Shown piece by piece: positions 25,452 through 34,472 of a stretch of DNA of 38,405 bases (the stretch's first letter is position 1; every line of letters begins with the position of its first letter). The notes under the pieces were generated by a model that made no database searches, was not told the DNA's origin, and was given only the letters and a program-made list of their open reading frames with translations. Both the position numbers and the translations under genes were made by a program. This stretch comes from a virus. Lineage: Duplodnaviria > Heunggongvirae > Uroviricota > Caudoviricetes. The stretch lies in IMG/VR virus record IMGVR_UViG_2639762960_000007; one strand, given 5' to 3'.

Positions 25452-25565
25452 GTGTGTCTCCTCGTTTGGTGGAGACAGCATCACAAATGTGGCGGGATAC
25501 GGATTTTAAACAGCGTTAATAGTGAAGATGTAAACGTGCACTGCATGATGGCTTTGAAAGAACGA

Positions 25566-25593
25566 CCAGCCCGGTACCCGAACACCGGGCTGG
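25566..25593 (-). terminator. GC-rich hairpin (10-bp perfect stem, 8-nt loop); candidate minus-strand terminator
   Basis: ccagcccggt-acccgaac-accgggctgg; on the minus strand it is followed by tcgttctttc. Confidence 0.35.
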
Positions 25594-25698
25594 CCATCGC
25601 CCCACAGGAATGCGCTGTGAGCCGACCAAGGTTCAGTCAGTCTCGCGAGACCAGACTAGCCTGCCATATTTTTTATAATTGTAAAAGGCTTACAGATT

Positions 25699-26469
25699 AT
25701 GAAAATGCAGACATTACCCATCGTTCCATGGATTGGTGGCAAACGCCGCCTTGCAAAACACATCCTGCCGCTGTTTCCGGCGCATGAATGTTATGTGGAG
25801 CCGTTTTGTGGGGCAGCAGCGCTCTATTTTCTTAAGGTACCCGGCAAGATCGAAGTCATTAATGATATCAACGGTGAGCTGGTGAACCTGTATCGGGTGG
25901 TAAAACATCATCTGGAAGAATTTGTACGCCAGTTCAAATGGGCGCTGGTCAGCCGGCAGATCTACAAATGGCTGCAGATCACCCCGGAAGAAACACTGAC
26001 GGATATCCAGCGTGCAGCACGGTTCTACTACCTTCAGAAGCAGGCGTTTGGGGGCAAGGTGGCGGAGCACAGCTTTGGTACCTCCACCATATCCCCGCCA
26101 CGCTTCAACCTGCTGCGTATTGAAGAAGAACTGTCAGCGGCACACCTGCGGCTTTCCAGAACGGTCATAGAACACATGGACTGGCAACAGTGCATAGAAC
26201 GATATGATCGCCCGCATACGTTGTTCTACTGTGACCCTCCATACTGGGGAACGGAAGGTTATGGTGTGGAGTTCGGACTAGAAAATTATGATCATATGGC
26301 AGATTTAGCACGCAGGATCAAAGGGAAGATGATTATATCGGTGAACGATATCCCGGAAATGCGGCAGGCATTCAACGGTCTAAATATTCAGTCGGTTGAT
26401 ATCAGCTACAACCTCAAGATCACTGGCAAATCCAGTCGCAAGAAGGAACTCATTATCCTCAACTTTTGA
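25699..26469 (+). CDS. N6-adenine DNA methyltransferase, Dam (D12 class)-like, orphan
   Basis: 256 aa; ATG at 25699; motif I-like EPFCGAAAL and catalytic DPPY (FYCDPPYW); no adjacent restriction endonuclease candidate. Confidence 0.85.
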   Translation: MKMQTLPIVPWIGGKRRLAKHILPLFPAHECYVEPFCGAAALYFLKVPGKIEVINDINGELVNLYRVVKHHLEEFVRQFKWALVSRQIYKWLQITPEETLTDIQRAARFYYLQKQAFGGKVAEHSFGTSTISPPRFNLLRIEEELSAAHLRLSRTVIEHMDWQQCIERYDRPHTLFYCDPPYWGTEGYGVEFGLENYDHMADLARRIKGKMIISVNDIPEMRQAFNGLNIQSVDISYNLKITGKSSRKKELIILNF

Positions 26470-27664
26470 CCGAATAGTAAGACTTCATGCAGTGAATCAA
26501 GTACTGCATGAAGTCAAGGGCTGGTTTTGTGTACCAAAAATAAACAGTGATAGCGGTAATAATTCCCATAACTAGAACACCACGTATAATCCAGAACGTA
26601 CGTTTCTGCGTGTCTAGTCGCGCAGAAATACTGCTAAATACACCAGCCACGTCATCTTTAATGAAGGAATATTCCTTATTAATCTGTTTTTCTTTGTATT
26701 CAATTTCTTCGCCTAAGGCCTTTATAGATTGCATCTGGTTCGAAAGTGCCAGCCAGATTAACGTTGCAGCAAAAATGCATCCCAGAAGAATTATTGTGTT
26801 TGTTATCCCTTGGCCTGACCATTTCGTAGCCACTTTGAATTGGGTAGCTACGATAACAGAGGCAACAGGAATGCCAAGTATATGGTTCTGGATATCTGAA
26901 AACGCTTTGTGGATTTTACCCATTTCTTCGACTTTTGCAGCACGCAGTTGATCCATTACTTTGTCATAAGAGAATCCAGAAGAGTAGATACGATACCCTT
27001 TCAGAAACTTTTCATGCAGACGCTGAATATTGTCCAGTAAATAAGCGAATACTAGAGGTGAATCAATTCCATCACTAACTGCTTGAATACTTTCAATCAG
27101 AATATCTAGCTTCTGATCCTTATGGGTATCATCATTGAAACAAGCTATAAGGTTATCAAGATACTCCCTTTGCAAATTTTGTACATTTTCTGCAGCGAAG
27201 TGCGGTAATAGCTTGATAACTTCTTTTTTCAGAAAAACTAACTGACAAGTTGAGTTATCAAAGTAGGCCGCGGCCTCTTTTAGCAGGTTAACGAACTCGA
27301 GAATCTTCCGGTAGTTGCTGATGAAAACGGGGATATCTTCATCATCATTACGAAATTTTGTTTCTAGGATGAAGTAATTAGCTGGCTCAAGGCACTGATG
27401 CTTTGGAGCATTTAGCAATTTTTCATGGGTGGAAAACACAAGTCCCAGTCCACTCCGTGGTGACGTCACACGTAGGATGATCGTGTTACCTGGAGCGATA
27501 GTGCCTGTATCAATAGAAAGACCATATTCACGAGGATCATCAAGCAAAGTATCAACCAGATCACAATCGGACTGATCTAAGAGCAACAGCGAACCGACAC
27601 GAAACCCCTCTTGGAATTCCATACGACGATACAGAGCTGTCAGCATCTCAAATGAAATCGCCAC
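26459..27664 (-). CDS. Protein with ~270-aa soluble N-terminal domain and three C-terminal TM helices; second gene of the repressor-linked cassette (candidate effector)
   Basis: 401-aa ORF starting at GTG 27662..27664, two nt after the upstream gene's TAA, with GAGG upstream; alternative ATG at 27646. Hydrophobic segments IPVASVIVATQF, ITNTIILLGCIFAATLIWLALS and TFWIIRGVLVMGIITAITVYFWY. AT-rich codon usage. Confidence 0.65.
   Translation of the reverse strand: MAISFEMLTALYRRMEFQEGFRVGSLLLLDQSDCDLVDTLLDDPREYGLSIDTGTIAPGNTIILRVTSPRSGLGLVFSTHEKLLNAPKHQCLEPANYFILETKFRNDDEDIPVFISNYRKILEFVNLLKEAAAYFDNSTCQLVFLKKEVIKLLPHFAAENVQNLQREYLDNLIACFNDDTHKDQKLDILIESIQAVSDGIDSPLVFAYLLDNIQRLHEKFLKGYRIYSSGFSYDKVMDQLRAAKVEEMGKIHKAFSDIQNHILGIPVASVIVATQFKVATKWSGQGITNTIILLGCIFAATLIWLALSNQMQSIKALGEEIEYKEKQINKEYSFIKDDVAGVFSSISARLDTQKRTFWIIRGVLVMGIITAITVYFWYTKPALDFMQYLIHCMKSYYSVKS
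26481..26515. other. Perfect 13-bp-stem inverted repeat at the convergent junction of the methyltransferase and cassette genes
   Basis: gacttcatgcagt-gaatcaagt-actgcatgaagtc, 12 nt after the methyltransferase stop and inside the last ~20 codons of the minus-strand membrane-protein ORF. Confidence 0.4.
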
Positions 27665-27666
27665 GA

Positions 27667-28674
27667 TTAAACCTCAGTCATCCACATTTCCCTAAATTCT
27701 TCAGGTACATTACGTAGGGTGATAATATTTGTTTCCGGATCATAATCAATATAGCCTTCAGTTTTCCCTTCCCGGTCAAACTTAAGTTCCCAATATTTAG
27801 ACTTGCCTTTAAAAGATACCAGAGCCCGAATGACTCGACCATCAGGAACGAAGCCATCCGATAACTCCAACTCTTCAGCAGCAAGTTTACCAGATAACTC
27901 CTCGGGAGCCTGGGGCCAAATGGCATTAACAAGGGTTTCAAGACTAAGTGGTTCACCAGCCTTACTTAGTGCATGTAAGTGTTCAAACGCACTCTTAAGA
28001 AATGCATCTTTTTCAGCGCCGTCAAGTCCTTTCTCTGCCGCAAATGCTTTTAAAACGTCACGTAACTTTTCAGACTCTCGTTTGGCGATTAAGACATCAT
28101 TACAGCCTAGGAACTGTTTAAAATAGTTTGAAACATTACCTTGCCCCTTAAGAAAACTGATATAGCGCTCTGCGCCACTTTCCCACGCGGTTAAGTCAAT
28201 GCGCCCAGCCATACGCAGCTTAGCAATATCAAGATAGGTACTATCTTGGATGTTAAAATCATCTGTGACAGTGGACCCAATGGTAGCGCTTACAATAGCT
28301 ATCAACAGGTGTTCATTGTGTCCTATCACGATATTTGCAAAAAGAACATAACCACCAGTAGCCATGTTTTCTCGCTGAGAACGTTCCGTCAGGTGATGCA
28401 TCATTCGGCAGGAACTTTGGTAGAAATCATCAACACCTTCGAGAAAGTCCCCAGCCATTCGTTCCATAGGATAGTTATCCGTATCGCCTTCAAAATAGCC
28501 ATAACCTTTACCTGTGCGTCCTGCATATTTTGCACAAATATCGTTTATAAGGCGCTGAGAGGCTTCAGTAACTAGACCTTCTTCAGGACTCAATCTCTCA
28601 GAAGCGTCTCCATTTTGTTGTTTGTCTAAAATGTGAACTACAACGTGTTTAACTTCAATGGTCTGCTCAGACAT
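27667..28674 (-). CDS. NdpA/YejK (NA37)-like nucleoid-associated-protein homologue; first gene of the repressor-linked cassette (candidate sensor)
   Basis: 335 aa; ATG at 28672..28674 preceded by GGTGGA. It matches the length and several blocks of E. coli YejK as I recall it (GGYVLF, LLIAIVS, YLDIAKLRMAGRIDLTAWESG, RYISFLKGQG, IITLRNVPEEFRE). The family call is from memory, not a search. Confidence 0.55.
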   Translation of the reverse strand: MSEQTIEVKHVVVHILDKQQNGDASERLSPEEGLVTEASQRLINDICAKYAGRTGKGYGYFEGDTDNYPMERMAGDFLEGVDDFYQSSCRMMHHLTERSQRENMATGGYVLFANIVIGHNEHLLIAIVSATIGSTVTDDFNIQDSTYLDIAKLRMAGRIDLTAWESGAERYISFLKGQGNVSNYFKQFLGCNDVLIAKRESEKLRDVLKAFAAEKGLDGAEKDAFLKSAFEHLHALSKAGEPLSLETLVNAIWPQAPEELSGKLAAEELELSDGFVPDGRVIRALVSFKGKSKYWELKFDREGKTEGYIDYDPETNIITLRNVPEEFREMWMTEV

Positions 28675-28744
28675 TGGCTATCCACCTTATTTTTTATTGC
28701 TTAATGGCAAATAATTTCTGCTATATGTTCTCGTTAGGAACACA

Positions 28745-29152
28745 TTAACCCACATTTTTTAACCGCTCAATCGTTGCGGATAATTCCTTCAGTTGTTTTT
28801 CCATCTCAATCACACGCTGTTTTTCTTCAGCGCCTCGCATGAGATCTCGCCGAACCTCAGGATCTAACTGGTTTAGAAGTTCAAGCATTTTAAGGTCTGA
28901 CGGGCTGAATTGATGTTGTGTTGGTACAGCAACAATTTCTTTAGATGGAATATGTTCTTTACCGGTAAGTAGCCAATCGATTGATACACCCAAATGGGTA
29001 CTTAGCGCAACAAGAGCCTCTGCGTTTGGTTCTCTCTCTCCACGCAAATAGTTTTGAAGTGAGCGATATGGAATTTTTGATAAGTCAGATAATGCCTTTA
29101 TTGTCATGCCATTAGCATCCATCACTTCACGCAATCTCTCTTTTGTACTCAT
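28745..29152 (-). CDS. Phage repressor, HTH (XRE/Cro-C1 type) with C-terminal coiled coil
   Basis: ATG at 29150..29152 gives 135 aa starting MSTKERLREVMDANGMTIKALSDLSKIPYRSLQNYLRG; divergent from the early operon across an operator-like region. Confidence 0.7.
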   Translation of the reverse strand: MSTKERLREVMDANGMTIKALSDLSKIPYRSLQNYLRGEREPNAEALVALSTHLGVSIDWLLTGKEHIPSKEIVAVPTQHQFSPSDLKMLELLNQLDPEVRRDLMRGAEEKQRVIEMEKQLKELSATIERLKNVG

Positions 29153-29168
29153 TTGAACATATCTCAAT

Positions 29169-29196
29169 TTGACACACTCATTTGGGTGTGTACAAT
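29169..29196 (+). promoter_or_regulatory. Candidate early promoter (-35 TTGACA, 16-bp spacer, -10 TACAAT) overlapped by an operator-like dyad
   Basis: TTGACA at 29169..29174 and TACAAT at 29191..29196, 45 bp upstream of the Ner-like ATG; dyad ACACAC-N8-GTGTGT (29172..29191) spans the spacer. Confidence 0.5.
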
Positions 29197-29240: not shown

Positions 29241-29465
29241 ATGAACAAACAACAAGTTCGGGCACGGCTGGTTGAACGAGGCAGTAGCTTGCGCCAGTTC
29301 GCGCTTAACGCGGGCTATGAACCACGAACAGTCACCCAGGCAGTCAGTCGCTGGGCTGGTAAAAGTGAACTACCTCGCGGTCGTTTGACTTATCGGATTT
29401 TGCGAGATCTATCGGTTGCAATAGGTAAAGAAGTTACCCCCGGTATCCTTAAGGAGGCGTCATGA
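29241..29465 (+). CDS. ner: Ner-like DNA-binding protein
   Basis: ATG at 29241 (track start is GTG two codons upstream); 74 aa with LRQFALNAGYEPRTVTQAVSRW resembling the Mu Ner HTH region; first gene of the early operon. Confidence 0.65.
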   Translation: MNKQQVRARLVERGSSLRQFALNAGYEPRTVTQAVSRWAGKSELPRGRLTYRILRDLSVAIGKEVTPGILKEAS

Positions 29466-33941: not shown

Positions 33942-34472
33942 ATGGCAAAAAGTACAAAAGGGGCAAAACGTATCAAAGCCGCAGCAGCACTCTGGGTGCC
34001 GGGGACACGCGAAGAGGTCATTGAGGGAATCAGACTGCTTGGTGACGCGCAACGTGAACTGGTCAGGGCTGAAACAGAAATGAATGACACCATTGGCGAC
34101 ATCACTGCACGTTATGCCCCGCTCACCGAGAGCCTGAAAAAACGCATGGCCGAACTGCAGTCCGGTATCCAGACATGGTGTGAGGCGCACCGTGATGAAC
34201 TGACCGGCAACGGGAAGGTGAAGTTCGCTAACCTCACCACCGGCGAGGTGCAGTGGCGAAACCGTCCGCCGTCAGTCAGCATTCGCGGGGCGGATAATGT
34301 TATTGAATTACTGAGACGTCTGGGGCTTGAGCGCTTTATTCGTGTAAAGGAGGAAATAAATAAAGATGCCATTCTGAATGAAAAAGAGGCTGTGAAAAAT
34401 ATTCCCGGTATTACCATAAAAAGTGATATTGAGGATTTTTCAATAATTCCTTTTGAGCAGGATGTGCAGTAA
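33942..34472 (+). CDS. gam: Host-nuclease inhibitor Gam (Mu Gam family, Ku-like DNA-end binding)
   Basis: 176 aa; ATG at 33942 preceded by GGAGGAG. It resembles Mu Gam along the whole length as I recall it, including the shared C-terminal motif GIEDFSIIPFEQ. Confidence 0.9.
   Translation: MAKSTKGAKRIKAAAALWVPGTREEVIEGIRLLGDAQRELVRAETEMNDTIGDITARYAPLTESLKKRMAELQSGIQTWCEAHRDELTGNGKVKFANLTTGEVQWRNRPPSVSIRGADNVIELLRRLGLERFIRVKEEINKDAILNEKEAVKNIPGITIKSDIEDFSIIPFEQDVQ

Follow-up and report, generated by a model that had tools for sequence, protein, structure and literature searches.

Two recently described two-gene systems are the closest points of comparison for the locus studied here. DS-1 (working identifier D390) is a phage-validated Escherichia coli pair reported with DefensePredictor (Science 2026; PMC13092281), in which a gene for a nucleoid protein of 391 amino acids (WP_000355468.1, 220602-221777) is followed by a gene for a protein of 404 amino acids (WP_000150292.1, 221780-222994). 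In the screen, DS-1 brought plating down by 7.6 logs for Bas1, by 2.7 logs for Bas26 and by 1.7 logs each for Bas3 and T3; the pair is marked as replicated, and the YejK domain is named among the domains newly validated in defence (PMC13092281). PANGU systems, found via linkage to defence islands, rely on YejK-like sensors; once an infecting phage is breaking down the host's DNA, these depart from the nucleoid to bind an effector and switch it on (10.64898/2026.04.06.716658). The type II form (Li et al.) consists of the sensor Pag2A and the membrane effector Pag2B, whose N-terminal domain is acidic (a 'DNA-mimic') and whose C-terminal domain lies in the membrane. Type II PANGU acts by abortive infection and requires both genes, as shown for the E. 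coli type II system only; the PANGU sensor binds the effector N-domain with a dissociation constant (KD) of 19 nM and departs from the nucleoid when T4 infects (10.64898/2026.04.06.716658). We analysed a 38,405-nucleotide stretch of viral DNA (IMG/VR record IMGVR_UViG_2639762960_000007, hereafter the window), which is a BcepMu-like transposable prophage of E. coli, and within it a two-gene cassette behind the immunity repressor, consisting of gene A, for a nucleoid-associated protein, and gene B, for a predicted membrane protein. Judging from homology and architecture, this cassette is likely to be a prophage-carried two-gene abortive-infection system of the DS-1 / type II PANGU kind. We favour defence because both proteins are homologous to the DS-1 pair, the gene layout matches, the pairing is strict, and the module is portable and dispensable to the phage.

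NCBIfam release 20 holds a model for each DS-1 protein, namely NF053868 (DS1_1_antiphage, 'nucleoid-associated anti-phage protein', cut-off 330 bits) and NF053869 (DS1_2_antiphage, cut-off 315 bits). The gene A protein matched the first with 63.7 bits (E 1.4e-17), and the gene B protein matched the second with 75.9 bits (E 3e-21) over residues 74-366 of its 401, which is the sole NCBIfam family match for gene B. Because these scores lie far under the equivalog cut-offs, we regard the cassette proteins as remote homologues, not orthologues, of the DS-1 proteins. The same models were matched by every relative scanned, 39/39 for gene B (all of them remote matches) and 32/32 for the nucleoid protein. 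BLASTP against the DS-1 sequences, taken from Table S8 of PMC13092281, gave 23% identity between gene A and WP_000355468.1 (8e-9) and 23% identity over residues 74-355 between gene B and WP_000150292.1 (6e-10). Profile comparison with hhalign aligned gene B to the second DS-1 protein over 274 columns with a probability of 95.3%. By these sequence comparisons, the cassette belongs to a superfamily of DS-1-like nucleoid proteins with membrane partners.

Both genes gave strong family matches in PHROG, each to a single non-Rex family (gene A, phrog_3767, 7e-117; gene B, phrog_5023, 2e-142), and a chance pair of open reading frames was therefore excluded. Gene A further matched Pfam NA37 (1e-80), and no Pfam family was found for gene B. 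Residues 1-260 of the gene B protein are soluble with a net charge of -11, and hydropathy marks hydrophobic segments at ~285-308 and ~357-378, with a weaker one at ~262-280. In its AlphaFold2 model (predicted local distance difference test score, pLDDT, 81.5), very long C-terminal helices come after an alpha/beta N-domain, and the invariant columns of the family cluster at 223-277, which forms the helix entering the first membrane segment. Homologues share a conserved N-terminus in which F5, L8 and Y12 hardly vary, and this supports the GTG start assigned to gene B. PANGU operons were defined as adjacent genes less than 40 bp apart (10.64898/2026.04.06.716658), and here an NA37 gene and its partner are separated by 2 nt. 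By analogy, we propose a role as DNA-bound sensor for the gene A protein, which would correspond to the DS-1 nucleoid protein and to Pag2A, and a role as membrane effector for the gene B protein, which would correspond to the second DS-1 protein and to Pag2B. The E. coli PANGU system that was tested could be DS-1, a member of the gene-B family or another system.

The gene-B family comprised 166 clusters in a word-indexed search, and a profile search returned 1272 representatives at 50% identity, 939 of them at 1e-10 or better. We surveyed the pairing at 76 loci, taking one genome per species, mostly from Gamma-, Beta- and Alphaproteobacteria. An NA37 gene lay directly upstream of gene B on the same strand, abutting or overlapping it, at all informative loci (71/71); of the other five, three were truncated copies and two ran into the end of a contig. 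The two proteins also diverge in parallel. BcepMu-like prophages carry the module in their central slot in Mixta, where the layout is as in the window, and in Brenneria, Pectobacterium, Klebsiella, Chitinimonas, Jeongeupia, Alishewanella and Terasakiispira. Lambdoid prophages of Salmonella, Proteus, Serratia, Erwinia, Rosenbergiella and Yersinia carry it by the late antiterminator and lysis genes, and in a Paraburkholderia island it lies near an Mrr-type nuclease. Within E. coli, the cassette was found in 19 of 5426 complete genomes, and 643 have a match to the 9.5 kb of prophage around it. In the four related E. coli prophages inspected, this slot, bounded by the holin gene and the repressor, was occupied by different cargo. 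Since most E. coli relatives are without the cassette and have other cargo in the slot, the phage does not need it. This cargo includes a 328-amino-acid protein that weakly resembles Flk at its N-terminus, with a protein of 193 or 203 amino acids encoded after it, as well as a DUF2441 protein, a 175-amino-acid protein, and proteins of 158 and 242 amino acids with weak P-loop matches; these may be further accessory or defence genes. When the collection of deposited phages was searched with the cassette, megablast gave no match, and tblastn recovered six distant carriers only, among them Klebsiella phage Kp4865-4 and Sinorhizobium phage phi2LM21.

Several observations weigh against a defence function of this kind. 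With identity of about 23% and scores far under the cut-offs, function and trigger could differ from those of DS-1. Gene A scores nearer to housekeeping YejK (186 bits, itself under that equivalog's cut-off of 341) than to the DS-1 nucleoid protein. PADLOC 2023 returned no match for gene A and just a weak KwaA match for gene B (8e-5). The eight alternative cargo proteins of the slot gave no defence-family match in PADLOC, NCBIfam or Pfam, and the slot therefore lends no support by association. The likeness to type II PANGU is one of architecture, not of sequence comparison. Finally, in the BcepMu-like prophages of Pectobacterium, Chitinimonas, Alishewanella and Terasakiispira, the holin and SLT lysis genes follow immediately after the pair in the same orientation, a placement that would also suit a function within the late programme of the phage itself.

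That placement, and the finding that the pair's divergence is roughly on a par with that of these lysis genes, favour a reading in which the pair serves the phage's own cycle, for example by nucleoid remodelling or membrane tethering during replicative transposition, or in lysis timing. Mu-type transposition uses host nucleoid proteins, which speaks for it as well. We nevertheless consider such a role quite unlikely, given that most related E. coli prophages are without the pair and hold unrelated cargo in the slot, that a Salmonella Typhi relative retains merely a remnant of gene A, that the same pair occurs in lambdoid prophages and non-phage islands, and that cloned DS-1, with which it is homologous, suffices by itself for protection against phages.

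Prophage exclusion proteins often reside in the inner membrane, and the location of the cassette in the immunity region, together with its membrane protein, could equally point to an adjunct of superinfection exclusion or immunity whose targets would be incoming related temperate phages, stopped at the membrane while the host cell survives, for example because their DNA is kept from entering. An entry block, however, needs no strictly co-inherited cytoplasmic DNA-clamp protein, which is what the survey of pairing found, and the published relatives act by abortive infection against lytic phages; we judge this explanation very unlikely. The higher score of gene A against YejK than against the DS-1 nucleoid protein bears on a further reading, in which gene A is a 'stealth' or regulatory nucleoid protein that tunes host or prophage transcription and gene B is unrelated or a regulatory partner. 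Paralogues of nucleoid proteins are known on mobile elements, and the NdpA-like Pnd protein of plasmid pCAR1 is such a 'stealth' nucleoid protein. This reading leaves unexplained both the invariant coupling to a 400-amino-acid membrane protein, often in overlapping frames, and the homology of both proteins to a validated defence pair, and we hold it to be highly improbable. All three explanations are weakened because the pair is dispensable, portable and related to DS-1, and we prefer an abortive-infection system of the DS-1 / type II PANGU kind.

The steps by which such an abortive-infection system would act can be transferred from the PANGU preprint. In a lysogen, the YejK-like gene A protein would sit on the chromosome, and an infecting phage that degrades or heavily damages host DNA would cause its release. 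The freed protein would then bind the acidic N-terminal domain of the gene B protein, which in turn would damage or depolarise the inner membrane, so that the infected cell no longer supports phage growth. Lysogens would express the pair, possibly through transcripts that continue from the repressor gene, and expression coupled to the repressor would also silence it once the prophage turns lytic.

The immediate setting of the cassette bears on its expression (Table 1). At the junction of the two genes, '...gaggtt TAA tc GTG gcg...', the stop codon of gene A is followed after 2 nt by the GTG of gene B, with a GAGG 8 nt 5' of this start. E. coli M-17 carries a closely related prophage (NZ_CP068394.1, 1640873..1679447) in which the cassette region is identical, and RefSeq annotates both coding sequences there with identical ends, gene A as WP_000003711.1 'nucleoid-associated protein' and gene B as WP_001007984.1 'hypothetical protein'. 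Neither accession occurred in the papers searched or in the rows searched of the DefensePredictor tables (PMC13092281). The RefSeq start of the repressor is the ATG at 29152, not the TTG at 29248. A consensus scan of the gap between repressor and gene A found no terminator-like site, and the RNA fold of this gap was not more stable than shuffles (z = +0.57). No convincing sigma-70 match that could serve as the cassette's own promoter was found in the leader, and one weak promoter-like site (9/12 matches) lies at 28809..28780, within the 3' end of the repressor gene. From this arrangement, the repressor transcript could read through into the cassette. The near-consensus site beyond the repressor start is, by its sequence and orientation, probably the early lytic promoter of a divergent switch region. 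About 70 nt 5' of gene A are partly conserved in the Mixta, Brenneria, Pectobacterium and Klebsiella loci, where the upstream neighbours differ, and we conclude from this conservation that the leader belongs to the module. Linkage to the repressor is not a conserved trait of the module. In the Klebsiella relative an opposed dam gene stands between repressor and cassette, and in other genera one or two unknown open reading frames do so. An earlier note on this DNA, made from the sequence alone, had described two tightly coupled genes behind the repressor on the same strand, which the open reading frames, the junction and RefSeq all agree with; its view that the gap holds no convincing terminator is upheld by scan and fold, and the C-terminal membrane anchoring that it had predicted for gene B corresponds to the two main hydrophobic segments. 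Its suggestion of co-transcription with the repressor stands as a possibility in the window but does not extend to relatives, as the opposed dam gene of Klebsiella and the lambdoid prophage settings indicate.

Table 1. Coordinates of the cassette, its neighbours and the corresponding slot in related prophages. Positions are those of the window unless a locus handle is given.
Feature	Position	Strand	Remarks
Gene A, YejK/NdpA-family (NA37) nucleoid-associated protein	27667..28674	-	335 amino acids, ATG start
Gene B, predicted membrane protein, acidic soluble N-terminal part	26459..27664	-	401 amino acids, GTG start
Leader with gene A ribosome-binding site (AAGGTGGA, strong)	28675..28744	-	70 nt, without terminator
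Immunity repressor, HTH_3 / CI-type	28745..29152	-	135 amino acids; Pfam HTH_3 5.9e-12, Phage_CI_repr 2.5e-6; RefSeq WP_001513990.1
Near-consensus sigma-70 promoter-like site, TTGACA-16-TACAAT (11/12)	29169..29196	+	Just upstream of repressor start, faces Ner-like gene (29235)
Dam-type N6-adenine DNA methyltransferase, orphan	25699..26469	+	Pfam MethyltransfD12 7e-28; PADLOC MTase_II 4e-115
Mu Gam-type host-nuclease inhibitor	33942..34472	+	Prophage-encoded
Slot cargo in related E. coli prophages (equivalent to 25500..28744)	L009 2563-3885; L010 2786-5389; L011 2560-4732; L012 2795-4950		

The cassette lies between the two gene blocks of the prophage. Late genes run leftward from ~25500 and encode a holin, an SLT lysin, terminase, a Mu-type portal, sheath, tape measure and baseplate; rightward from 29235, the early genes specify a Ner-like protein, a DUF3102 protein, a DDE transposase, an ExeA-type MuB, Gam and Mor. 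The guanine-plus-cytosine content of the cassette and repressor region is 40-44%, against 55-60% in the remaining phage. The dam gene is convergent with gene B and overlaps its 3' end by 11 bp (26459..26469), so that cassette transcripts would run antisense into dam. The association of dam with the cassette is not a conserved one: in Klebsiella the methyltransferase gene is placed differently with respect to the cassette, and in Pectobacterium and Chitinimonas the interval from gene B to the holin gene lacks it. The Gam-type nuclease inhibitor could matter to a resident system that is proposed to sense DNA degradation. In M-17 the prophage is inserted between rstA and rstB, and this two-component operon is therefore split there. 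Across the 19 carrier genomes the coordinates of the cassette vary widely, in keeping with a transposable phage.

Three further occurrences were recorded alongside the survey. In a Mu-like prophage of Salmonella Typhi (CP029870.1), a 198-amino-acid gene A fragment (L092 6001-6597; P0286), 100% identical where aligned, lies between the transposase side and the holin gene, with no repressor-type, gene-B or dam genes called between them. This decayed cassette seems to be fixed in the lineage, since the fragment is indexed in ~2700 blocks of the collection. Jeongeupia wiesaeckerbachi (NZ_CP136946.1) has two copies of a BcepMu-like prophage, identical in our comparisons, each with the cassette (L025, L028). 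Cassette homologues of ~34% identity were also present in Acidobacteriota and Candidatus Yonathbacteria assemblies (L041, L042), where they may reflect horizontal transfer or binning contamination.

A link to Kiwa (KwaA/KwaB) was examined separately and rejected. The KwaA match (8e-5) was found in just 3/39 members of the gene-B family, PADLOC matched 0/32 of the nucleoid proteins, Foldseek comparison with KwaB gave E 0.3 and a template-modelling (TM) score of 0.2, and there were no sequence matches in the PDB.

The earlier note had presented the cassette as a candidate new Rex-like exclusion system. Its claim of novelty falls to the DS-1 homology and the type II PANGU architecture, both from systems described in 2025-2026, and by these comparisons the cassette is a new relative of an already described kind of system, not a new system. 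A match to a described system had been named beforehand as an outcome that would overturn the proposal, and such a match was largely found, at the level of remote homologues only. A role in defence survives as the best-supported function, in the form of abortive infection, without the novelty of the system. The statement that the proteins resemble neither Rex nor any defence family holds for Rex and fails for defence, where both DS-1 models were matched. The cassette had also been placed outside the core Mu-type set, in agreement with its 19 carriers against 643 region-matching E. coli genomes, and survey of the same slot in related prophages did reveal turnover of cargo across the four E. coli relatives.

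The gain over the DS-1 and PANGU reports is incremental, because these already describe such systems and the mechanism by which they probably act. A pair annotated as 'nucleoid-associated protein' and 'hypothetical protein' can nonetheless be read as a likely defence system of transposable and lambdoid prophages, in Enterobacterales and beyond. The cassette also connects two independent reports that do not mention each other in the texts searched, and it points to prophages, unmentioned in both reports, as frequent carriers of such systems. The text of the PANGU preprint mentions neither prophages nor DS-1, Rex or RdgC (10.64898/2026.04.06.716658). If the cassette is driven from the repressor side, it would bear on how a phage carries a DNA-damage-sensing suicide system that stays untriggered during its own replicative transposition.

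The parallel with lambda Rex drawn in the earlier note holds in logic and position but finds no homology by profile comparison. In the Rex system a soluble protein that binds DNA non-specifically and a membrane protein are encoded beside the prophage repressor on the same strand and give abortive exclusion, and the cassette resembles it in this logic and position. The position is Rex-type in that the cassette adjoins the repressor without a terminator between them, a linkage that is not kept in relatives. With hhalign, the cassette proteins gave probabilities of 0.2% for RexA and 1.0% for RexB, and neither matched a Rex PHROG. RexB is a four-helix membrane protein. It has 144 amino acids and no soluble domain, whereas the gene B protein has 401 and a large N-terminal domain. 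Structure papers describe the YejK N-domain as weakly similar to RdgC and Cenp-N (PMC11229321) and RexA as similar to RdgC and Iml3/Chl4 (PMC11077077); the first makes no mention of RexA, the second none of YejK, and neither cites the other. One could imagine from this that RexAB, DS-1, type II PANGU and the cassette form one ancient class, in which a clamp sensor of the RdgC/CENP-N type reports DNA loss or damage to a membrane effector. We consider this speculative and rather unlikely, and hhalign gave no sequence signal for a link between RexAB and YejK-type proteins. Were it true, the cassette would be the YejK-type version in the rexAB position, directly behind the repressor, lysogen-specific expression would spare the phage from its own system during lytic growth, and PANGU release from DNA would become a concrete model for the Rex trigger.

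Set beside the systems with which we opened, the cassette is closest to DS-1. In both, the nucleoid-protein gene comes first and the gene for a partner of ~400 amino acids second, the gap is 2 nt, and both proteins are homologous; the DS-1 partner, like the gene B protein, has a soluble N-terminal part and hydrophobic C-terminal helices. They differ in that identity is ~23% and scores lie far under the equivalog cut-offs, in an extra N-terminal zinc-ribbon-like segment of the DS-1 nucleoid protein (391 amino acids, against 335 in gene A), and in that DS-1 is phage-validated whereas the defence role of the cassette is predicted. With type II PANGU it shares, by the described architecture, a YejK-like protein and an adjacent putative effector with acidic N-terminal and C-terminal membrane parts, but the PANGU systems were discovered by their linkage to defence islands, whereas the cassette is prophage cargo behind a repressor. 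E. coli YejK (PDB 9be2) is a housekeeping nucleoid-associated DNA clamp, whereas gene A is prophage-borne and always coupled to a membrane partner.

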